A DNA stretch of 32,000 nt from Nostoc sp. DedSLP01 (lineage in GTDB: Bacteria; Cyanobacteriota; Cyanobacteriia; Cyanobacteriales; Nostocaceae): assembly GCA_034530875.2 (NCBI GenBank), contig JAVRCJ020000003.1:72246-104245 (forward strand). The letters are read 5' to 3'. Each line of letters begins with the position of its first letter. Position 1 is the stretch's first letter. The notes under the pieces were generated by a model. It was not told where the DNA came from. It saw nothing but the letters and a program-made list of their open reading frames with translations, and ran no database searches. Both the position numbers and the translations under genes were made by a program. This document shows positions 7,844 through 22,303 of the stretch, piece by piece.

Positions 7844-8212
7844 TACCGGAGTTGATTACGTAAATAAACAGTAATATTTATATCATCAGTTTACTAACAT
7901 ACAGATAAAGCGCTAGAAAAATCTAGTAAATCATAGTACTAAAAATATCTGGCTCAGCTTTTATCTGCATTGCAATTTGCATAGATATGAATTTCATCAT
8001 TGTAACGAGCGAAAGCTGATTTTTAACACATTGTCTGACTATATCAACTGATTCAGAGCATCTCAGTTCCACAAAAATATTTAGGAAAAAATGCGAAAAT
8101 TATCGACGTAAATTTGTAGATATATCTATGTCTACAAAAGTGAGATGCACTCTTTAATTTAACCCTCAAAAAGCCCAAATTTCAGCTTCTACCATACCAC
8201 AAACCAGAATCT

Positions 8213-8836
8213 ATGTTTATTGAAACGCTATTCACAGACCCAATTTCTTTTTTGAGAATCATTGTAATTGTCATATTTTCCATTACTTTGCACGAACTTG
8301 CTCACGGCTGGGCTGCTATGAGTCAGGGGGATAATACTCCACAAAAGACAGGGCATCTCACCCTTAATCCTGTAGTTCACATGGGCAAAGAATCGATTAT
8401 CTTTCTTTGTCTGATGGGTATAGCCTGGGGACAAATGCCCGTCAACCCGTCTAAATTTCGCTCTCGCAAGCTAGGCAATATTTTGGTGTCTGCGGCTGGC
8501 CCATTTTCAAATTTGGCTTTAGGTATTCTATTTACTCTAGCCCTTAAAATTCTCGCTACCTTGACCCTTGCAGGAGTCTTCAGTGTCGAATTTCTTTATC
8601 TAGCGGCTCGAATCAATTTAACATTATTTATGTTTAATCTCTTGCCAATCCCACCACTTGATGGCTTTCATGTCTTCAGTGAAATTTTTCCAAAATTAAA
8701 ACCATTAGAAACTACTCAATTTGGAATCTTTGCAATGATGCTTCTATTTATAATTCCAGAATTTGGGATTGGACTTAGTAGCATTTCTGATTTAGTTATT
8801 CGGTCGGTAATTGGTGTAAAATCCGGAAATTTTTAA
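8213..8836 (+). CDS. Site-2 protease family (M50) membrane metalloprotease
   Basis: It has the HELAHG (HExxH) motif in TM1 and ..FNLLPIPPLDGFHV.. (the second metal-ligand motif). It is 207 aa and polytopic. Confidence 0.85.
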   Translation: MFIETLFTDPISFLRIIVIVIFSITLHELAHGWAAMSQGDNTPQKTGHLTLNPVVHMGKESIIFLCLMGIAWGQMPVNPSKFRSRKLGNILVSAAGPFSNLALGILFTLALKILATLTLAGVFSVEFLYLAARINLTLFMFNLLPIPPLDGFHVFSEIFPKLKPLETTQFGIFAMMLLFIIPEFGIGLSSISDLVIRSVIGVKSGNF

Positions 8837-9039: not shown

Positions 9040-10428
9040 TCAATGATTTAGAGTTGCCACTTTTTTGCTGTAATATTCAGTTTTTGCATAGATACTGATA
9101 ATACTATCACCAACTGCAAAAAAAGTACCTTGTTGCTCATTTTTAGAAAATTGCAAATTGGGATATTTAGCAGCGACTTCTTGCACAGTCATCGGTTTTG
9201 CGTTCATTTGGTCTGGCAATACTCCAGTACAACCAATATAAAATACTAAGGGAGAAATCTTGTCTTGGTAGATTTTTTCTGCATATTGTTCTAACTTAGT
9301 ATTTGCAGTTGTTAATGCTGCGATCGCTTCTTCTTTATTGATTTGCTTGCCAGCTTGTTTATCCTGTAATAAATCTGCCAAATCTTCAGCACCAACTCTT
9401 GTGAGAATGCGTACAACTATGCCATTTTGCTCAAGTCCAAGAAAATCATCAAAAATCGGTTTCATCAACTCGTCAACTTTTGTAATCTTGGTGCGTGATG
9501 ACAGTAGCCTCTGTCTCACAGCAAGATTCCGATTAAATATCATCTCAAAACTCGACTTTTTAATAATCTCTCCAGTTTTTTTATTGTAGAGACGATACAT
9601 TCTATTGAGAAATTTGTTCGCAGAATGCAACTTGTTCAAGTTAAGGATATCCTGGCTACCAATATCAATTTTATAGCTCAATCTGGATTCTAAAGTACCA
9701 TTTGCTATAGCTTCATGGATATCTGTGTATTCATTAGTCGTCGGAAAATTGATGTAAACATTCTTAGATAGGTAGTGCTTTTTAAATTCATCTAACTGTT
9801 CTGCTACAAATACATCGGACTCATTTTTCAAGCAAGCAGAAATCATACTAGTAAGTACTTTAATTTCTGCAAGTTCATTGAATAGTCCATCTATGCTGCT
9901 GTAATGACTATCAGCAGGTACAAGCGGTAAATTATCTAATTGGATAGTATATTCACCACGAAAGTCAAAATTTTTTGCATCTAGTACGCCCTTTTGTTGA
10001 AGTAATTCAAAAACTTTTTTACTACTAATTTTGACTCGTAAAGATTTGACGTTGATGTTGCCGTTACTAACAATCGTGTAATTATTAAAGCTATCTAGCT
10101 CATTAACTAACAAACCTGCTACCTCAAGAGTGGGAGTTTGGTCTGCGGATTTAGCAAGTTTGACTTTACGTTTGATAAGCATATTAATAGTAGCGGTATT
10201 GCGATTAAAGTGAAACTCGCCCATACCAACATACTCAGCATTATCTATATTTTCTGTTCGCAACCAAGGTTGGATCGGTTCTCCGTTTTCGTCTCTCACA
10301 CCTTTAATACGCTTGATACCTGTTCTTTGATAATTTTCTTGCAGGTGCTTGATGTTGACGATAATATTGTGACGATATTGCGTAAAGATTTTGATGAGTT
10401 CTACTAGAGAGATTTGATTATTTGTCAT
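9040..10428 (-). CDS. Hypothetical protein, about 462 aa, with no domain I can recognise
   Basis: This is a long open frame. I moved the start to ATG 10428-10426 (MTNNQISLVELIK..) because AAGGTGG lies 5 nt upstream. The track start at 10491 is not an ATG. No P-loop, TM helix or metal motif is visible. Confidence 0.6.
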   Translation of the reverse strand: MTNNQISLVELIKIFTQYRHNIIVNIKHLQENYQRTGIKRIKGVRDENGEPIQPWLRTENIDNAEYVGMGEFHFNRNTATINMLIKRKVKLAKSADQTPTLEVAGLLVNELDSFNNYTIVSNGNINVKSLRVKISSKKVFELLQQKGVLDAKNFDFRGEYTIQLDNLPLVPADSHYSSIDGLFNELAEIKVLTSMISACLKNESDVFVAEQLDEFKKHYLSKNVYINFPTTNEYTDIHEAIANGTLESRLSYKIDIGSQDILNLNKLHSANKFLNRMYRLYNKKTGEIIKKSSFEMIFNRNLAVRQRLLSSRTKITKVDELMKPIFDDFLGLEQNGIVVRILTRVGAEDLADLLQDKQAGKQINKEEAIAALTTANTKLEQYAEKIYQDKISPLVFYIGCTGVLPDQMNAKPMTVQEVAAKYPNLQFSKNEQQGTFFAVGDSIISIYAKTEYYSKKVATLNH

Positions 10429-10564
10429 ATTTCCACCTTGGATATAAAGGCTAACAAGCTGTTGAACCGTGGAAAATTGAAGTGCAAACACACGAGATTT
10501 TGCTCAATAAAAGTATGACAATTTCACGCAGAGGCGCAGAGTGAGAGATTGAGTTTTCATACTA

Positions 10565-10768: not shown

Positions 10769-12439
10769 TTAGGCTCCGGGTTTAAAATAATCCAAGAGGC
10801 GATCGCCTGAATCAGCGCGAATCAATGCTACAACTACATCTGGTAAGGCAGCTAAGCTGGGATAAACTAAATAACGCGGTTCCCAACGGGGGTGGAACTT
10901 CTCTTTATAGGTATGTAACCCCTGGAAATTGTAGAAGTGATTTAAATGTTCGTAAAGATAATGCAATACTTTCTCTAAACGGCGCGATTGTGGGTTATCT
11001 CCAACTCCAGCGAGTGCAGAAAGACCAAAATTGAAGCTATCGTAACCACATTCTTTAAAATGCTGGAGCAGCGAAATGAATAAAAAGTCCATTATGCCAT
11101 TTTCAAGGGACGAGCGATATCGCATCAAATCGATAGTTGCTTCATTAAGTTGATACTCTGGAATAATATTTGCAAAGGCGCTAATCTGACCTTCAGGGCT
11201 ATGCAGGACAGCAATCTCACATTCTCGCAGATATGCTTCATCAAACCAACCTAAAGAAAAGTGTTTTTCCGAACCTTGTACCATATTTAGCCATTCATCA
11301 CTTACAGGTTTGAGTAAGTGCAACAAATCATTGTCGATTGGTGGTTGGTAAAAGTTAATTCGGTATCCTAGTTTTGTTAAACGATTGATTGATGGTCTAA
11401 AATTTTTCCCAGCTTTACCTTGTAATGTAAAACTTTGCAAATCAACGATCGCTTCTTCTCCAATCTTGAGTACTTGAAATCCCAATGACTTGTAAAGTTC
11501 AACATCATCGGGCAAAGTTTGATAAAAACTAGGATACCAATCATTGCGCAGGCAAAACTGCCAAAAAGCAACAATTGTCTCTTTGCGGTCTTCAATGGGG
11601 CCGATGGGATCTCCTAAGGCGATCGCGCCTCGTCCTTTGGAAACGTAAGCGATTACACTATTACCAGAAGGGCTGAAATAATAACTCTTATCATTTAATA
11701 ATGTCAAAGCTGCTAAAGAAGAACATCCATATTGTTCGATAATTTCTTTAGCTTTTTTGCGTTCGTTTGGAGTTGCTAAATTACGCCAAAATACGGGTTG
11801 CAACAACATAACCACCGCGTATGTAATAGTAACTGCTGCAATCACATAAATAGAATTAGCAAAAAAAGCCCCAAACTTGCTTTTTGGTTCCAGACCCCAA
11901 TTATCTTCGGTGAAGAACATTGCTAAAGTCTGAACTACGGCTTCACGCCAATTAAAATTTTGTGAAAACTTGCCATCTAATAAGTAAAATCCAATAGTTC
12001 CGTATGCCAGGGTAAATAATAAAGCACCAATTAGCACTCGGACTCCCCTTGCAATAGAAGGAGGGTCTGATTGCGCTGTAAAAACATGGCGCATCAGAAT
12101 TAATTGCATTAATAATATGCCAGATAATATACTTTCTTCGTAATCAAATCCTTTCACCAAGTGGCTGAACATAGAAATGACTAGCAGGCTAACAATCAGT
12201 AACCAAGCTATCTTTTTTCGGCGTAATAAATTAGTTGCAAGTGTTAATAAAACAAACCCAGTCAGTGCTGCAAAAATATGACCAGTAGCACGAATTTCAA
12301 ATGGTAAAAATTCCTTTAACCAGTGATTTCGACCGTACAGGTTAGGTGTCACTGCGGATAACAAATTTACTATCCCCACTAAACCTGTAAGGAAAGCTGC
12401 ACTCCAAAGTCCAATCTGAGTTTTTAAGTTATTAGTCAT
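10769..12439 (-). CDS. mprF: Aminoacyl-phosphatidylglycerol synthase half of MprF (about 6 TM helices plus the cytosolic LPG-synthase C domain)
   Basis: It aligns by eye with the S. aureus MprF C-terminal half: IIEQYGCSSLAALTLLNDKSYYF..AIALGDPIGP versus [31 protein letters not shown], and FYNFQGLHTYKEKFHPRWEPRYLVYP versus [26 protein letters not shown]. Confidence 0.9.
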   Translation of the reverse strand: MTNNLKTQIGLWSAAFLTGLVGIVNLLSAVTPNLYGRNHWLKEFLPFEIRATGHIFAALTGFVLLTLATNLLRRKKIAWLLIVSLLVISMFSHLVKGFDYEESILSGILLMQLILMRHVFTAQSDPPSIARGVRVLIGALLFTLAYGTIGFYLLDGKFSQNFNWREAVVQTLAMFFTEDNWGLEPKSKFGAFFANSIYVIAAVTITYAVVMLLQPVFWRNLATPNERKKAKEIIEQYGCSSLAALTLLNDKSYYFSPSGNSVIAYVSKGRGAIALGDPIGPIEDRKETIVAFWQFCLRNDWYPSFYQTLPDDVELYKSLGFQVLKIGEEAIVDLQSFTLQGKAGKNFRPSINRLTKLGYRINFYQPPIDNDLLHLLKPVSDEWLNMVQGSEKHFSLGWFDEAYLRECEIAVLHSPEGQISAFANIIPEYQLNEATIDLMRYRSSLENGIMDFLFISLLQHFKECGYDSFNFGLSALAGVGDNPQSRRLEKVLHYLYEHLNHFYNFQGLHTYKEKFHPRWEPRYLVYPSLAALPDVVVALIRADSGDRLLDYFKPGA

Positions 12440-12450
12440 TTGTCGTTAAT

Positions 12451-12482
12451 AGTTAGGAGTGAGGAGTTAGGAGTTAGGAGTT
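12451..12482. repeat. Heptamer tandem repeat AGTTAGG/AGTGAGG x4.5 (STRR-like)
   Basis: Read directly as agttagg agtgagg agttagg agttagg agtt. It lies in the 58-nt spacer between the esterase stop and the mprF synthase start. Confidence 0.8.
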
Positions 12483-12497
12483 TTCAATTTTTAACTC

Positions 12498-13406
12498 TTA
12501 ACTTCTACCTTCTGACTTATGAAACTGTTCTCCTACATAAGAGAGTGAATTTTTGAGATGTTTGTGGAAGTAGTTCCAGCCGACATCAGTACCAGATAAA
12601 CCATGACCTCCAGGAAATGCATAAAATACGTGAGTAATACCTAACTTATTTAAGGTTTGATTAAAGGCTTTGGTTGAAGCTAGTAAATTAGTATCGTTAA
12701 CGCCCGCATCTAAGTAAATACGTAATTGCTTCCTATCTTGAATTGGTAACTGTTGCACAATTTGTTGAGGACTATTTTGCGAACCGCTGCTATCAGTAAA
12801 GTAACCGCTATGACTAAAGAAAATATGGAAGTTGTTAAGATAGCGTAAGCCGATATTAAAAGCTCCCCACCCTCCAGAGGATATACCTCCTATAGCCCAA
12901 AATTGGGGTTTTTCTAAAGTGCGGTAGCGTGACTTGACAACTTGTACTAATTCCGAACCAATTAAAGTCCCGACTTTGCCATTCGGCCCGTCAAAATAAT
13001 CAGGGTCGTATAAAGGACTGGAACCGCGATTGTCATTACCATCAGGTGTAATTACAATCGATGGCGGTAATTTCTTACTTTGATAAAGTTCGTGCAACAC
13101 ATCTAAGATTGCATATTTATCAGCAAAGGCGCGAGCATCATCATGTCCCCCATGTAGTAAGAATATCACGGGGTAGCGCTTTTGCCGATTTTTGTTATAG
13201 CCAGGAGGTAAGATGACGCCATAGTTGCGGACTGCACCCATCGCTTGGGAATTGAAGCTTACTAATTGAAACTTTAGCCCAGTATTTGTTTCTTCTGCGG
13301 GCGGGTCTAGTTGTGGTGCGCCTAAGATAAATACATAATAGTAAGCAGCGATAGTGAGAAGGGCGATCGCTCCTACCAAGCTAATCAAAAATTTGGAAAT
13401 CTTCAT
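12498..13406 (-). CDS. Exported/anchored alpha/beta-hydrolase (esterase family), paralogue 1
   Basis: It has an N-terminal hydrophobic anchor, then YPVIFLLHGGH, and a nucleophile elbow in FWAIGGISSGGWGA (GxSxG-like). It closely parallels the neighbouring gene. Confidence 0.75.
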   Translation of the reverse strand: MKISKFLISLVGAIALLTIAAYYYVFILGAPQLDPPAEETNTGLKFQLVSFNSQAMGAVRNYGVILPPGYNKNRQKRYPVIFLLHGGHDDARAFADKYAILDVLHELYQSKKLPPSIVITPDGNDNRGSSPLYDPDYFDGPNGKVGTLIGSELVQVVKSRYRTLEKPQFWAIGGISSGGWGAFNIGLRYLNNFHIFFSHSGYFTDSSGSQNSPQQIVQQLPIQDRKQLRIYLDAGVNDTNLLASTKAFNQTLNKLGITHVFYAFPGGHGLSGTDVGWNYFHKHLKNSLSYVGEQFHKSEGRS

Positions 13407-13523
13407 ATATTTTTAGCTTGAAAAAATTCACCTCCATATAGAATTTCAGATATTTAGTCTAATGCAATTTTCGACATAGCTTTTTGATTCAAATTTGACC
13501 GTTAAGCTTTTGATAATATTCTG

Positions 13524-14486
13524 TTATTTTTTGACATTAAGACTTTGATTTTCACCTTTATCCATTATCTTTGCTAATTTGAATTGTTCGCCCACGAATG
13601 TTAAAGAATCAGCTAAATGTTCGCGCCAATATTGCCAAGTATGACTGCCAGGAAACTCCCGAAACAGATGGTAAATTTGGAGTTGTTCGAGTACTTTCTC
13701 AAATTGTTCGGCTTCTTGGATTTCTTCTGTATCTGACCTACCAGAATCGAGGTAGATTCTCAATCTTTTTTGTGCTTGCAAAGGAATAGTTTTGATATAA
13801 ATTATTGGGCTATTTTTAGGACCGCTTTTATCCTGAAAATAACCGCTATGACTAAATAAAACTGAAAAATTATTTAGATTGTGTAATCCCACATTCACCG
13901 CACCCCAACCGCCAGAAGATAAACCACCTATTGCCCAAAAATCTGGGTTTTTTATTGTACGATAACGGCTTTGGATAACTTTTACTAATTCATCTCCCAC
14001 GGCTGTGGAGACATTACCGTTAGGGCCATCGATATATTCAGGGTCTCGGTAGGGACTAGAGCCGCGTTTATCGTTACCATCTGGTGTAATAATTATGCTC
14101 GGCGGCAACTTACCTGTAATATAAAGTTGTTTGAGAGTTTTAAGAGCTTGTCCTTTATTTTCAATAAACCAATCTTTAGGATTGCCATGTCCGCCGTGGA
14201 GAAGAAAGATTACAGGATAGCTTTGTTTTGGATTTTGCTCGTAACCAGGGGGTAAAGAAACGCCGTAGGTACGACTTCCACTCATAACTTGACTATCGTA
14301 AGTTTCAATTTTATAGCTGAGGGGAGTAGCTAAGTCGCTATTATGAGGCTGCGATGGAAAAAGCGAAGGCGTTGTTTGTAAGTTTTGCTGTTGCGGTGGG
14401 TTTGCTACGACACTTTGCGAGAAATGACAGCTAAATAGAGTTAATAGTGAAACTAGCAAGAAAATATTCGATTGTTTGTAGTTCAT
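13524..14486 (-). CDS. Secreted alpha/beta-hydrolase (esterase family), paralogue 2
   Basis: The signal peptide is MNYKQSNIFLLVSLLTLFS. The first ATG is at 14486; the track start at 14492 is a TTG. Readable motifs are YPVIFLLHGGH, LPPSIIITPDGNDKRGSSPYRDPEYIDGPNG and FWAIGGLSSGGWGA. Confidence 0.75.
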   Translation of the reverse strand: MNYKQSNIFLLVSLLTLFSCHFSQSVVANPPQQQNLQTTPSLFPSQPHNSDLATPLSYKIETYDSQVMSGSRTYGVSLPPGYEQNPKQSYPVIFLLHGGHGNPKDWFIENKGQALKTLKQLYITGKLPPSIIITPDGNDKRGSSPYRDPEYIDGPNGNVSTAVGDELVKVIQSRYRTIKNPDFWAIGGLSSGGWGAVNVGLHNLNNFSVLFSHSGYFQDKSGPKNSPIIYIKTIPLQAQKRLRIYLDSGRSDTEEIQEAEQFEKVLEQLQIYHLFREFPGSHTWQYWREHLADSLTFVGEQFKLAKIMDKGENQSLNVKK

Positions 14487-14629
14487 TTTCAAAGAGCATT
14501 GAGTATTGGACAGTGAGCGCTAGCAATCAAAAGTTTACGCAAGTAATTTGTCAATCTTGTGTCAAGACGATGGAAACTTTACGACTAGTTGTAAGTTAAA
14601 AATCAATAGTTAAGATAAGTTTGCTGGCG

Positions 14630-15559
14630 ATGATGAAAAAGCTGCGACTTCATTTGAGTTCTTTGTTTGGCTTGCTGCTGCTGGTAATTTCTGTCTGGGC
14701 GATCGCTCGCGAATTGCATGACTATAATTATCGTGATATCCTCAACTCATTAGCGGCAATTCCCAAGAATCGCTTAAGCTGGGCAATTTGGCTGACAGCT
14801 TTGGGCTATCTAGTGATGATTGGCTATGATATTTTGGGTTTTAAATATATTAATCGTTCGCTAAGTTGGAACAAAATAGCTTTCACTAACTTTATTAGTT
14901 CTACATTTACCAATACGATTGGTTTTGCCTTGCTAACTGGCAGTGCTATCCGTTATCGATTTTATGCTAATTGGGGAGTGTCAGCAGTAGCGATCGCTCA
15001 AGTGATTGCTTTTGCTAATTTTACTTTTTGGTTGGGAATGTTTGCCATTGCTGGATTGATATTTATTACCAACCCTTTAACAATTCCCCCACAACTACAT
15101 TTGCCTTTTGCAACAGTACGTCCCATCGGTGTAATTTTTTTGGTACTGATTGCTATATATTTGCTGGGAAGTATTTTAATTAAAAAACCTGTAATCATTC
15201 TTCAGCATGAATTTCGCTTTCCTTCATTGCCAATATCCTTAGCTCAAATTGTGATTTCTAGTCTTGACTGGATTATTGCTGCGGCAGTTCTTTTTGCAAT
15301 GCTTCCTAGTAATATAACTTTGTCTTATCTCGATTTTTTAGGAATTTATTTACTAGCGATGTTTGCAGGGGTGGTGAGTAATGTTCCTGGTGGTTTGGGT
15401 GTTTTTGAAACTGTGATGTTGCTGCTTCTCTCATCAAAAATTTCGGCGGCGGTAGTTTTGGGTTCGCTGTTAGCTTATCGTGGGATATACTATTTTTTAC
15501 CTTTGCTGGTTGCGGCAGGTTTGTTAGGAATATATGAAGTTAAATTTGGAAGAAATTAG
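14630..15559 (+). CDS. mprF: Flippase-like N-terminal half of MprF (LPG-synthase TM / UPF0104 domain, about 8 TM helices)
   Basis: It aligns by eye with S. aureus MprF residues ~20-320: RELHDYNYRDILNSL.. versus RELSGINFKDTLVEF.., and ..FAGVVSNVPGGLGVFETVMLLLL..LLAYRGIYYFLPLLVA versus ..[39 protein letters not shown]. I prefer the ATG at 14630 over the track TTG at 14621. Confidence 0.85.
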   Translation: MMKKLRLHLSSLFGLLLLVISVWAIARELHDYNYRDILNSLAAIPKNRLSWAIWLTALGYLVMIGYDILGFKYINRSLSWNKIAFTNFISSTFTNTIGFALLTGSAIRYRFYANWGVSAVAIAQVIAFANFTFWLGMFAIAGLIFITNPLTIPPQLHLPFATVRPIGVIFLVLIAIYLLGSILIKKPVIILQHEFRFPSLPISLAQIVISSLDWIIAAAVLFAMLPSNITLSYLDFLGIYLLAMFAGVVSNVPGGLGVFETVMLLLLSSKISAAVVLGSLLAYRGIYYFLPLLVAAGLLGIYEVKFGRN

Positions 15560-15769: not shown

Positions 15770-16159
15770 ATGAGAAATAAACTATTGTTTGGCGCCATAT
15801 TTATGGCAACTTGGGTAGGAACATTAATCCCGAGTGCTTTTGCGGCTTCACCTTGTTCTGTGGGACAAAAAGCAGAGGTTTTTTGGAAAGATACATGGTA
15901 TGCAGCAACAGTCTTAGAAGTGAATGACGATCGCTGCTATATTACCTACGATGGTTATGATAGTTCTTGGGATGAATGGGTTGATTCTTCACGCTTTCGG
16001 GTATCTTTTGAAGTTGGAGACGCAGTACAAATTCTCTGGAAAGGTAAATGGTATGCAGGGAAAATTTTAGATGTGAGTGACAATCTTTATAAAATTACTT
16101 ATGACGGTTATGATAGCTCTTGGGATGAGTGGGTTGAACCTGCACGAGTAAGTAGATAG
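15770..16159 (+). CDS. Secreted protein with two tandem Tudor/Agenet/SH3-like barrel repeats
   Basis: The signal peptide ..LIPSAFAA is followed by two ~50-aa repeats: G.KAEVFWKDTWYAATVLEVNDDRCYITYDGYDSSWDEWVDSSRFR and GDAVQILWKGKWYAGKILDVSDNLYKITYDGYDSSWDEWVEPARV. Confidence 0.7.
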   Translation: MRNKLLFGAIFMATWVGTLIPSAFAASPCSVGQKAEVFWKDTWYAATVLEVNDDRCYITYDGYDSSWDEWVDSSRFRVSFEVGDAVQILWKGKWYAGKILDVSDNLYKITYDGYDSSWDEWVEPARVSR

Positions 16160-20455: not shown

Positions 20456-22303
20456 ATGGCGCTCATAGTTCAGAAATACGGTGGTACATCTGTCGGTTCA
20501 GTTGAACGCATTCAAGCTGTTGCACAGCGCGTTTACAAAACTGTCAAAGCTGGAAACTCTGTGGTTGTAGTGGTTTCGGCAATGGGCAAAACCACTGATG
20601 GACTCGTCAAGCTAGCCAATGAGATTTCGCCAAATCCTAACCGCCGGGAAATGGATATGCTGCTTTCCACCGGCGAACAAGTAACTATTGCTTTACTCAG
20701 TATGGCGTTGCAGGAACTCGGACAACCAGCAATTTCCATGACTGGCGCTCAGGTAGGAATTGTTACCGAAGCCGAATACACCCGCGCTCGCATTTTACAT
20801 ATTGAAACCACTCGCTTAACTCGCCACATAGAAGCAGGTAAAGTAGTCGTTGTAGCTGGTTTTCAAGGTATCGCTAGCACTGATGCCTTAGAAATTACCA
20901 CTTTAGGGCGCGGCGGTTCTGACACTTCCGCAGTCGCACTCGCAGCAGCATTACAAGCTAATTTTTGTGAAATTTATACAGATGTTCCCGGTATTTTAAC
21001 TACAGACCCGCGCTTAGTTCCCGAAGCTCAGTTGATGGATGCCATCACCTGCAATGAAATGCTAGAACTAGCGAGTTTGGGAGCAAAAGTCTTGCATCCC
21101 CGCGCAGTGGAAATTGCTCGTAATTATGGCGTTCCCCTGGTAGTGAAATCGAGCTGGACAGATGACCTAGGTACTTGGGTAACATCAGCTAAACCCAAAG
21201 GGCGATCGCTCGTCAACCTCGAAATCGCCCGCCCAGTTGACCATGTAGAATTTGACACCGACCAAGCAAGGGTTGCTTTGTTGCGCGTGCCAGACAAACC
21301 AGGTGTAGCAGCAAGTTTGTTTGGCGAAATTGCCCGCCAAAAAGTAGACGTAGATTTAATTATTCAGTCAATTCACGAAGGTAATAGTAATGACATCGCC
21401 TTTACTGTCACTACACCAATTTTAAAACGAGCCGAAGCAGTAGCAGCAGCGATCGCTCCAGCCTTGAGGAGCAAATCTAACCCCAAATCTGACGAAGCCG
21501 AGGTAATGATAGAGCATAACATTGCCAAAGTCAGCATCGCAGGTGCAGGGATGATTGGGCGCCCTGGTGTAGCTGCCAAGATGTTCGCCACCTTAGCCGA
21601 AGCTGGCGTCAATATACAGATGATTTCCACCAGCGAAGTCAAAGTTAGCTGCGTAGTAAATGCAGCCGAATGCGATCGCGCCGTTACTGCGCTACGTAGC
21701 GCCTTTGAAATTGAAGCAGAGGAGCAGGGGAGCATGGGAGCAGAGGAGAGTTCATCCCCTCTGCCCCTCCGCCCCTCTGCCCCTGTAGCCAGTTTTCCTC
21801 CCGTCCGTGGCGTCGCTTTGGACTTAAACCAAGCGCGTCTTGCGATTCGCCAATTACCAGATCGTCCAGGGATGGCGGCGAAGTTGTTTGGATTATTAGC
21901 GCAACATAACATTAGCGTTGATATGATTATCCAATCTCAGCGTTGCCGGGTAGTTGATGGCGTTCCTAGACGGGATATTGCCTTTACAGTCTCGCGGATG
22001 GATGCGGAAAATGCCAAACAGCTGCTTACCCAAGTAGCAGCAGAATTAGGATGGGGTGAAGTTGTTTTAGATAATGCGATCGCCAAAGTGAGTATTGTCG
22101 GTGCAGGTATGGTAGGACAACCAGGTGTTGCCGCTAAAATGTTTGAAGCATTAGCCCAACAAAAAATCAATATTCAAATGATTGCCACCTCAGAAATTAA
22201 AATTAGCTGTGTTGTAGCACAAGAACAAGGTGTTAAAGCTTTACAAGCTATTCATAGCGCCTTTGGGCTAGCTGGTAGTGAAAAATTTGTAGTACCAGCG
22301 TAA
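20456..22303 (+). CDS. lysC: Aspartate kinase, cyanobacterial long form with a duplicated ACT-pair regulatory region
   Basis: The N-terminus MALIVQKYGGTSVGSVERI.. is followed by the kinase core and then two homologous regulatory halves (..LLRVPDKPGVAASLFGEIA.. and ..IRQLPDRPGMAAKLFGLLA..). Confidence 0.95.
   Translation: MALIVQKYGGTSVGSVERIQAVAQRVYKTVKAGNSVVVVVSAMGKTTDGLVKLANEISPNPNRREMDMLLSTGEQVTIALLSMALQELGQPAISMTGAQVGIVTEAEYTRARILHIETTRLTRHIEAGKVVVVAGFQGIASTDALEITTLGRGGSDTSAVALAAALQANFCEIYTDVPGILTTDPRLVPEAQLMDAITCNEMLELASLGAKVLHPRAVEIARNYGVPLVVKSSWTDDLGTWVTSAKPKGRSLVNLEIARPVDHVEFDTDQARVALLRVPDKPGVAASLFGEIARQKVDVDLIIQSIHEGNSNDIAFTVTTPILKRAEAVAAAIAPALRSKSNPKSDEAEVMIEHNIAKVSIAGAGMIGRPGVAAKMFATLAEAGVNIQMISTSEVKVSCVVNAAECDRAVTALRSAFEIEAEEQGSMGAEESSSPLPLRPSAPVASFPPVRGVALDLNQARLAIRQLPDRPGMAAKLFGLLAQHNISVDMIIQSQRCRVVDGVPRRDIAFTVSRMDAENAKQLLTQVAAELGWGEVVLDNAIAKVSIVGAGMVGQPGVAAKMFEALAQQKINIQMIATSEIKISCVVAQEQGVKALQAIHSAFGLAGSEKFVVPA
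21716..21785. repeat. ~70-nt G-rich/C-rich imperfect palindrome inside the lysC interdomain linker
   Basis: The sequence is gcagaggagcaggggagcatgggagcagaggagag ttcat cccctctgcccctccgcccctctgcccctg. It shares the CCTCTGCCCCTCTGCCCC motif with the intergenic element at 28111-28189 and encodes ..AEEQGSMGAEESSSPLPLRPSAPV.. Confidence 0.7.

Follow-up and report, generated by a model that had tools for sequence, protein, structure and literature searches.

tRNA-dependent aminoacylation of lipids is known mainly from work on pathogens, as a trait that confers resistance to antimicrobial peptides. Three families of hydrolases, PesT, AhyD and VirJ, are found beside genes for aminoacyl-phosphatidylglycerol synthases (aaPGS) (PMC6103681), and one of them, the “putative esterase” PesT, shares an operon in Actinobacteria with AlaDAGS, an aaPGS homolog with six transmembrane (TM) helices (PMC6103681, PMC10580965); its role in Corynebacterium, as hydrolase or transferase, has been left unresolved (PMC6103681). 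According to earlier work, the synthase and flippase activities of MprF can be separated, either may be encoded by a gene of its own, and MprF-type proteins are often encoded by cyanobacteria (Hauser et al. preprint). Here we describe a locus of Nostoc sp. DedSLP01, contained in a 32,000-nucleotide stretch (hereafter the window) of contig JAVRCJ020000003.1, in which the two parts of an MprF-type enzyme are encoded by divergent genes, SYN (synthase) and FLIP (flippase), enclosing two esterase genes, EST1 and EST2. Judging from the sequences, we incline, if with reservations, to read it as a tRNA-dependent lipid-aminoacylation module, MprF-like in kind, with PesT-AlaDAGS as its closest described relative. 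The four open reading frames (ORFs) and the region between the divergent pair were found as follows (positions in the window; aa, amino acids):

10769..12439, minus strand: SYN, 556 aa; six N-terminal TM helices (equal to MprF TM9-14, Subdomain 2) and a cytosolic tandem-GNAT synthase domain.
12498..13406, minus strand: EST1, a 302-aa PF00756 serine esterase with a predicted uncleaved N-terminal anchor, directly upstream of SYN.
13524..14486, minus strand: EST2, a 320-aa PF00756 paralog of EST1 with a predicted lipoprotein signal peptide.
14487..14629, no strand: the divergent intergenic region between EST2 and FLIP, presumed to hold a shared promoter and regulatory region.
14630..15559, plus strand: FLIP, 309 aa (312 aa from the TTG at 14621); eight TM helices, equal to MprF Subdomain 1 (TM1-8).

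The MprF profile (NCBIfam NF033480; 841 positions, cut-off 600 bits) is divided between the two divergent genes, with FLIP matching positions 4-300 (E 5.8e-67, 227 bits) and SYN positions 316-840 (E 1.8e-154, 516 bits), each below the cut-off on its own. FLIP also matches PF03706 (E 1.3e-13, residues 20-297 of 312) and aligns with residues 24-324 of Rhizobium tropici MprF (6lvf) and 22-317 of the MprF homolog 7f47; with the generic model TIGR00374 it yields 25.7 bits, under the cut-off of 43.2. SYN, from its residue 19 onward, aligns with residues 353-843 of the R. tropici protein, its residues 232-526 cover positions 2-298 of the 298 in PF09924 (DUF2156; E 3.4e-85), and it resembles the catalytic domain of Bacillus licheniformis LysPGS (4v36; E 1.6e-70). 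For the domain matches, chance is excluded by the E-values. TM helices and export signals of all four proteins were judged from hydropathy, sequence and conservation rather than by a dedicated predictor, and hydropathy gives eight TM helices in FLIP and six in SYN. The earlier note on this DNA had assigned the flippase part of MprF to the one ORF and the remaining TM helices with the synthase domain to the other, and both assignments are borne out. As the start of FLIP, the ATG at 14630 is favored over the TTG at 14621, because homologs align from residue 4-5.

In R. tropici MprF, Subdomain 1 (TM1-8) extends from Leu24 to Arg325, and Subdomain 2 (TM9-14) from Ser334 to Arg530 (PMC8131360). Since the FLIP and SYN alignments meet these limits, the break between the two genes is placed in the inter-subdomain linker, 8 residues long, between TM8 and TM9, and thus indeed at the flippase/synthase boundary, as had been proposed. 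Cut at the same point (1-320 plus 328-840), Staphylococcus aureus MprF works in trans (PMC8131360; Hauser preprint). The inner cavity of the R. tropici protein is formed by TM2-8, and the outer Cavity P lies between TM1/7b/8 and TM9-13 (PMC8131360); the cavities span both subdomains, and a full translocation path would therefore need FLIP and SYN assembled. The predicted N-in/C-in topology of either protein fits the canonical assembly, as well as the reverse fusions described below. The TM1-8 subdomain contains the aminoacyl-headgroup pocket, Cavity C, and Asp234, Glu280 and the YRxxY motif of the R. tropici protein bind the lysyl-phosphatidylglycerol headgroup and gate the channel (PMC8131360). 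Their equivalents are kept in FLIP (SLDW, GVFET and YRGIY) and are conserved in the FLIP clade, the 20 members of which are solely standalone flippases and one reverse fusion, P0242. All trees were built by neighbor-joining on trimmed MAFFT alignments, and are, being distance-based, indicative.

SYN is very probably an active aminoacyl-lipid synthase. Its catalytic domain is complete, and of the 12 positions with a conservation of at least 95% in fused forms, it retains 10. The MprF profile (516 bits) fits it much better than the LysX model does (166 bits), and its match to PF16995, the LysX-type TM region, is just over the cut-off (27.7 versus 26.8 bits). In MprF, Arg456, situated in the TM10-11 loop, forms a salt bridge that tethers GNAT fold 1 to the TM domain; it is Arg in 36 of 37 classical fused representatives. 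SYN has Ala122 instead, and each of the 11 non-classical synthases aligned, 10 of them esterase-linked, has Ala, Val or Gly.

EST1, separated from SYN by 58 bp on the same strand, and EST2 both match PF00756 (E 2.9e-20, 73.6 bits, and E 1.1e-25, 91.4 bits, respectively; cut-off 22), which was the sole Pfam match of either at E <= 0.01, neither of them matching VirJ. Their identity is 52% over 263 residues (E 1e-101) and includes the shared blocks from which their paralogy had been deduced earlier. In an alignment of 54 cyanobacterial and actinobacterial relatives, the catalytic triad of EST1 corresponds to Ser176 in the GxSxG motif (54/54), Asp238 (Asp in 48 and Glu in 4) and His268 (54/54), and the Ser-Asp-His triad is intact in both paralogs. 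Another candidate for the catalytic acid of EST1, Asp233, was ruled out in favor of Asp238 by the deeper alignment. The AlphaFold2 (AF2) model of EST1 (pLDDT 87.5, pTM 0.85) has an N-terminal helix at residues 2-27, and its nearest folds are CE1 feruloyl esterases and esterase D/S-formylglutathione hydrolases, with a target-normalized TM-score of up to 0.86 to 5vol; acetyl-xylan (CE1) esterases are also among the best structural matches. The absence of a VirJ match and the CE1/esterase D folds agree with the earlier view that the two esterases are not of the VirJ type.

Export signals had been claimed for both esterases, and they can indeed be recognized, in two different forms. The N-terminus of EST1 is rich in Lys and continues into one hydrophobic helix, and all SYN-adjacent EST1 orthologs, in both phyla concerned (Cyanobacteria and Actinobacteria), share a basic N-terminus, a single hydrophobic helix and an aromatic juxtamembrane motif (GYWYVF... 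in cyanobacteria, GYNYY... in the Rubrobacter type), in which Tyr22 and Tyr24 are at least 90% conserved. This signature would make EST1 an uncleaved N-in/C-out anchor protein with its catalytic domain outside. EST2 is predicted to be a lipoprotein, because the Cys of its lipobox (LTLFSC, Cys20) is kept in 70 of 70 orthologs, which read L-T-L-[VFI]-[GSA]-C; its ATG at 14486 is fixed by stop codons directly upstream in many orthologs.

We sought the same gene arrangement in other genomes, scoring gene content by tblastn at a query coverage of at least 50% rather than by full annotation, with “FLIP absent” referring to the neighborhood of a locus and not to the whole genome. Across Nostocales, the 556-aa synthase-only SYN and EST1 have orthologs at 70-92% identity (76-92% for SYN). 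The genome contig scan reached close Nostoc relatives only, and provided 80 loci from GTDB species representatives, nearly all of them Nostoc; wider sampling came from plasmids, single look-ups and a metagenome scan. EST1 is followed directly by SYN in 79 of the 80 Nostoc loci, which fall into the following classes:

FLIP(<-) EST2(->) EST1(->) SYN(->), all four genes: 66 of 80.
EST1->SYN alone, with EST2 and FLIP both absent for at least 9.6 kb upstream: 10 of 80.
EST2 present and no FLIP seen (one at a contig end): 3 of 80.
Contig ending just past EST1, SYN not assessable: 1 of 80.

Fischerella and Scytonematopsis display the same inverted layout, EST2 included, with a fifth gene, ABH, between FLIP and EST2. 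In Phormidium tenue, in a metagenomic cyanobacterium and on a plasmid of Chroococcidiopsis thermalis, the genes are co-directional in the order EST->SYN->FLIP, and a single EST is found in Phormidium tenue, Chroococcidiopsis and metagenome locus L085. A plasmid of Rubrobacter radiotolerans carries an EST->SYN->FLIP operon in which SYN and FLIP overlap by 4 bp, and the further actinobacterial-type esterases sampled were directly upstream of a PF09924 gene in four cases out of four. The metagenome survey, which was seeded with split-type synthases, yielded 80 loci, mostly without taxonomic assignment, at 52-95% identity to the Chroococcidiopsis SYN; EST is immediately upstream of SYN in 36 of the 63 that could be assessed, and those without EST belong almost all to two other sub-clades of the lineage. 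Among the 28 well-flanked EST-linked metagenome loci, 17 lack a nearby FLIP, 9 have the divergent Nostocales layout and 2 are of the EST->SYN->FLIP type. These counts identify EST->SYN as the invariant pair and the linkage to FLIP as facultative, and the absence of FLIP near many such pairs means that SYN and EST may work without FLIP or with an unlinked copy. EST2 and the inverted layout are features of Nostocales. The linkage thus extends well beyond the strain, to other cyanobacterial orders and to Rubrobacter-type Actinobacteria, as the earlier note required of its idea; of the four-gene module that it proposed, the complete set stands for 66 of the 80 Nostoc loci, but as a Nostocales elaboration around an EST->SYN core from which FLIP is often unlinked.

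The module of Chroococcidiopsis thermalis PCC 7203 resides on a conjugative 370-kb plasmid (L089, NC_019699.1), and the EST->SYN->FLIP genes of Rubrobacter radiotolerans are likewise plasmid-borne (L090, NZ_CP007515.1), suggesting that the module can move between genomes. A full Nostoc-type four-gene locus with 76-88% protein identity was also found on a 12.9-kb contig labeled “uncultured Acetobacteraceae bacterium”, a metagenome-assembled genome (L039, CAZZZY010000091.1), which is probably a binning contaminant.

It could be argued that the esterases have nothing to do with lipid aminoacylation, being cell-wall or exopolysaccharide esterases of the CE1 type or siderophore esterases, next to SYN by incidental synteny. 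The best structural matches to CE1 feruloyl and acetyl-xylan esterases, weak sub-threshold NCBIfam matches to enterochelin esterase, and the “enterochelin esterase-like” annotation given to homologs by JGI would agree with such a view; we nevertheless consider it very unlikely, as the same-strand position adjacent to and upstream of SYN is kept while esterase identity falls from 90% to about 30% over two phyla, the conserved anchor and juxtamembrane Tyr residues place the active site at the membrane surface, and the window contains no polysaccharide or siderophore genes. On the sequence evidence, the esterases probably act on the product of SYN or on a derivative of it.

To see in which forms the FLIP half occurs, we compared FLIP with 1.84 billion cluster representatives and examined the best 150 matches, which include 84 standalone proteins (~310-330 aa), 37 canonical fused MprFs and the reverse fusion P0242. 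The latter is an 882-aa protein composed of a SYN homolog (64% identical) followed by a FLIP homolog (49% identical), and is present on three metagenome contigs (L081-L083). The metagenome survey added four more reverse fusions (L118, L140, L142 and L145), bringing the reverse-order SYN-FLIP single ORFs to seven metagenome contigs in total, together with ten canonical FLIP-SYN fusions. As Rosetta-stone evidence, the reverse fusions tie the two halves together. In addition, one 555-aa protein (P0247, L097:6001-7668) joins SYN-type six TM helices to FLIP and has no synthase domain.

A more trivial explanation for the split, namely a decayed mprF gene or an assembly artefact, could point to metagenome locus L099 (6960-9668), where FLIP and SYN follow each other in canonical order and in the same frame with one stop codon between them, demonstrating that such breaks can occur. 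Its probability is, however, practically nil for the window: both halves are full-length and preserved at 76-92% identity across the entire order in hundreds of assemblies, which refutes it, and those of the window are encoded on opposite strands, with two further genes intervening.

Could FLIP be a general lipid translocator of the PplT/YbhN type, an incidental neighbor in Nostocales, with SYN and EST1 forming the complete unit? Its absence from the vicinity of EST-SYN in 17 of the 28 metagenome loci and 10 of the 80 Nostoc loci speaks for this, as does a standalone FLIP protein (P0245, 48% identical; L086) that adjoins an amino-acid permease and a DUF1003 gene on a 13-kb contig carrying no SYN; standalone PF03706 proteins are, moreover, widespread (Hauser preprint), and make up the 84 mentioned above among the best 150 representatives. 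Such a role is nonetheless unlikely in view of the reverse-order fusions on seven contigs, the EST->SYN->FLIP operons in two phyla with the 4-bp SYN/FLIP overlap in Rubrobacter, the retention of headgroup-binding residues in FLIP, and the need for helices of both halves to form Cavity P. Standalone PplT/YbhN proteins share with FLIP an eight-TM PF03706 domain that makes up the whole protein, but FLIP differs in being closer to the MprF subdomain (227 bits) than to TIGR00374 and in being linked or fused with a synthase. Taken together, the conserved linkage and the fusions support the earlier suggestion of a functionally coupled lipid-aminoacylation module, as far as sequence can indicate.

In the synthase phylogeny, the lineage containing the SYN of the window is recovered with a bootstrap of 88/100, every member having Ala at the Arg456 position, and classical MprF representatives are set apart at 100/100. 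Inside the lineage, a canonical-fused sub-clade (96/100) is without an accessory hydrolase, and the other two groups, a paraphyletic ABH-associated one that comprises all reverse fusions and the EST-linked cyanobacterial one, are jointly supported at 60/100. The position of the canonical-fused sub-clade rules out a separation of esterase-linked synthases from all canonical fusions, and the metagenome survey rules out that the FLIP->SYN order never occurs. The earlier note pictured a single polypeptide divided in two; since split, reverse-fused and canonical-fused forms are all found in the lineage, the direction of change is unresolved and a single fission is not shown. A sister relationship of the Rubrobacter-type and cyanobacterial synthases, obtained by neighbor-joining on BLOSUM distances, has a bootstrap of just 1/100, so that shared ancestry, inter-phylum transfer and independent recruitment of the esterase are not distinguishable, although a common origin is favored by the conserved anchor and juxtamembrane Tyr residues.

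Comparison with the known systems shows that this is a cyanobacterial variant, well conserved, of a known esterase-plus-synthase system, and not a new kind of system. The six-TM architecture and the upstream esterase make PesT-AlaDAGS the closest known system, rather than the VirJ-type pairs that the earlier note had chosen for comparison, and the pairing of an esterase of this kind with a synthase is not, as that note had supposed, a new one, PesT having already been described beside AlaDAGS (PMC6103681, PMC10580965). As in C. glutamicum, where AlaDAGS is the “type VII” aaPGS homolog cg1103, the synthase consists of six TM helices and a GNAT-like domain without the flippase subdomain, and its gene shares an operon with that of a putative esterase. 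That esterase gene was reportedly placed upstream of the AlaDAGS gene by Smith et al. in 2015, as EST1 is here. The Nostoc locus differs in the phylum, in having a separate cognate FLIP gene and two esterases with different anchors, and in that SYN is nearer to the MprF profile than to the LysX model and belongs to an “Ala-type” lineage of its own. The products of PesT-AlaDAGS are alanyl-diacylglycerol (Ala-DAG) and, with PesT, alanyl-phosphatidylglycerol (Ala-PG), whereas the amino acid and the acceptor used here are not readable from sequence. With the Rubrobacter esterase as query, no protein of Corynebacterium was retrieved.

Canonical MprF (S. aureus; R. tropici LpiA, 6lvf/7duw) likewise has TM1-8, TM9-14 and the synthase domain, the headgroup and gate residues are conserved, and the topology fits the same assembly; the locus departs from it in using two polypeptides from divergent genes, neither of which reaches 600 bits, in the replacement of Arg456 by Ala in SYN, and in that its relatives place SYN before FLIP and have natural fusions in that reversed order. 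LpiA-AcvB of Agrobacterium and Rhizobium and PA0920-PA0919 of Pseudomonas aeruginosa resemble it in having a synthase gene beside the gene for an extracytoplasmic membrane-associated esterase, but there the hydrolase, which acts on aminoacyl-phosphatidylglycerol, is of the VirJ type rather than PF00756, and a canonical fused MprF serves as the synthase. In Enterococcus faecium, MprF2-AhyD is also an operon of an alpha/beta-hydrolase and an aaPGS, in which AhyD controls the levels of aminoacyl-phosphatidylglycerol, but AhyD is structurally unrelated to PesT-type esterases (PMC6103681). The cyanobacterial lineage, the separate cognate flippase, the reverse-order fusions, the two anchoring modes of the esterase paralogs, the ABH fifth gene and the loss of Arg456 all appear to be undescribed.

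In the mechanism that we propose, SYN, held in the membrane by its six TM helices, would transfer an amino acid from aminoacyl-tRNA to a glycerolipid, phosphatidylglycerol (PG) or possibly diacylglycerol (DAG), at the cytoplasmic face. FLIP, with its eight TM helices and headgroup pocket, would dock on the TM bundle of SYN and rebuild the 14-TM pathway, and the resulting heteromer would carry the product across to the outer leaflet. The active sites of the esterases are predicted to lie on the outer side of the membrane, where the flipped product would appear, and EST1 on its TM anchor and EST2 on its lipid anchor would act there on the exported aminoacyl ester, most likely removing the amino acid and so setting the steady-state level of the lipid. 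What we infer is the physical assembly of SYN with FLIP, the compound on which the esterases act, and a hydrolytic rather than a transfer reaction. Precedents among hydrolases of various alpha/beta or VirJ families exist in VirJ/AcvB, AhyD and PesT (PMC6103681) and in the fungal ErdH, all encoded beside genes for lipid or sterol aminoacyl-synthases.

Several points weigh against this proposal. The literature searched contains no description of aminoacylated lipids from cyanobacteria, only incidental co-mentions. PesT, the sole studied esterase of the kind, is required for the formation of Ala-PG and is not known to degrade it (PMC6103681), and the six-TM relatives AlaDAGS and LysX aminoacylate DAG and not PG (PMC10580965). 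The closest solved structures to EST1 are those of polysaccharide (CE1 feruloyl) esterases, SYN has no Arg456 to tether GNAT fold 1 to its TM domain, and FLIP is not near EST-SYN in the metagenome and Nostoc loci counted above.

If the esterases do act on the SYN product, hydrolysis is what we would expect of them, with modest confidence, and transfer is the less probable, though by no means negligible, activity. As product-forming transferases, they would take up the aminoacyl group of the primary SYN product (e.g., aminoacyl-DAG) as acyl-Ser176 and hand it on, at the outer face, to another acceptor; PG, glycolipids and polymers of the cell envelope are candidates. In C. glutamicum, Ala-PG needs both AlaDAGS and PesT, and a transfer from Ala-DAG to PG has been proposed (PMC6103681); PF00756 includes acyl-transferases, and there is a weak match to PS1 (6sx4), a mycoloyltransferase of C. 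glutamicum; in its six-TM architecture and its PF16995-type TM region, SYN resembles the DAG-modifying enzymes; the esterase stays beside SYN even where FLIP does not; and the two differently anchored Nostocales paralogs could serve two acceptors. However, no sequence feature separates transferase from hydrolase, the nearest structures are hydrolases, as are the other characterized aaPGS-linked enzymes (VirJ/AcvB, AhyD, ErdH), and EST1 and EST2 are likened to PesT by description, not by sequence, so that on the whole we regard the transferase scenario as rather improbable. The outer-leaflet hydrolase of the earlier note is accordingly retained in one respect, the predicted extracytoplasmic location, and reduced in the other, hydrolysis for lipid homeostasis becoming one option beside the transfer role that was proposed for PesT.

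The fifth gene, ABH, which is found in the modules of related cyanobacteria and missing from the four-gene Nostoc unit, encodes a cytoplasmic Abhydrolase_1/6 protein of 275-283 aa with the nucleophile motif CHSYG, 51-77% identical between loci (L095:3153-3980; L096:3966-4811; L085:3911-4738; L079, ~8011-8826; L081:5897-6748). It accompanies reverse SYN-FLIP fusions that are without a PF00756 esterase; of the 80 loci fetched, only that of an uncultured cyanobacterium (L079) has it, and the window does not. Compared by description, ABH may be the nearer analog of AhyD. Two actinobacterial-type loci (L093:6001-11759 and L094:4977-9034) have longer synthases, of 685-700 aa, with two PF00756 genes around the synthase, and one of their PF00756 proteins is 591 aa long with extra N-terminal TM helices; the second esterase looks like an independent duplication of the esterase partner.

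Within the intergenic region between EST2 and FLIP, a block of ~95 nucleotides (14528-14623) is nearly invariant in an alignment of 66 distinct Nostoc sequences, and holds repeated TTTACG and TGTCAA as well as two GTA-N8-ATC motifs. The block could be an operator/promoter region or the 5′ leader of FLIP. Rfam yielded no match for this region, nor was there any tRNA match, and promoter and terminator consensus scans remained at the level of shuffled sequence and were uninformative.

Several other genes recur in the vicinity. An aspartokinase with four ACT domains, catalyzing the first step towards lysine, is located at 20456-22303 (+) of the window; it follows FLIP directly in Scytonematopsis (L096:749-2566) and at a distance of 3-8 kb in many Nostoc loci, that of the window among them. 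The proximity may be housekeeping synteny, or a hint at lysine as the amino acid used. Outside Nostocales, SYN and/or FLIP repeatedly have genes for DUF1003, an APC-family amino-acid permease and a PAP2 phosphatase as neighbors (L081-L083, L086, L089, L098, L099, L140 and L165; L090 and L091). A small exported protein at 15770-16159 (+) of the window, consisting of a signal peptide and two Tudor/Agenet-like repeats of ~50 aa, is conserved beside FLIP in many Nostoc loci; folds of the chromatin-reader type are unusual in a secreted bacterial protein. Just downstream of SYN and on the same strand, a 483-aa protein (9040-10491, minus strand) without a Pfam or NCBIfam match is conserved in most Nostoc loci, and is absent from the modules outside Nostocales.

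What the locus adds is a complete and conserved module in free-living and symbiotic cyanobacteria. Here the system comes naturally in pieces, that is, a synthase with TM9-14, a TM1-8 translocator and one or two anchored esterases, and the fusions and the variants without FLIP provide built-in controls; the cooperation between MprF subdomains, the role of PesT-type esterases, and the choice between PG and neutral lipid by six-TM synthases thereby become testable. In cyanobacteria, PG is the only phospholipid, and the bulk lipids are DAG-derived glycolipids. A more speculative version of the transferase scenario, which we hold to be improbable, is that cyanobacteria make an undescribed aminoacylated lipid and that the two PF00756 enzymes, with their different anchors, are trans-acylases rather than mere erasers, relaying the amino acid of the primary SYN product to another acceptor on the periplasmic or thylakoid-lumenal side. 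If true, it would reveal the function of PesT-type esterases, and Cyanobacteria and Actinobacteria would have in common a second branch of tRNA-dependent lipid modification, one that depends on an esterase.

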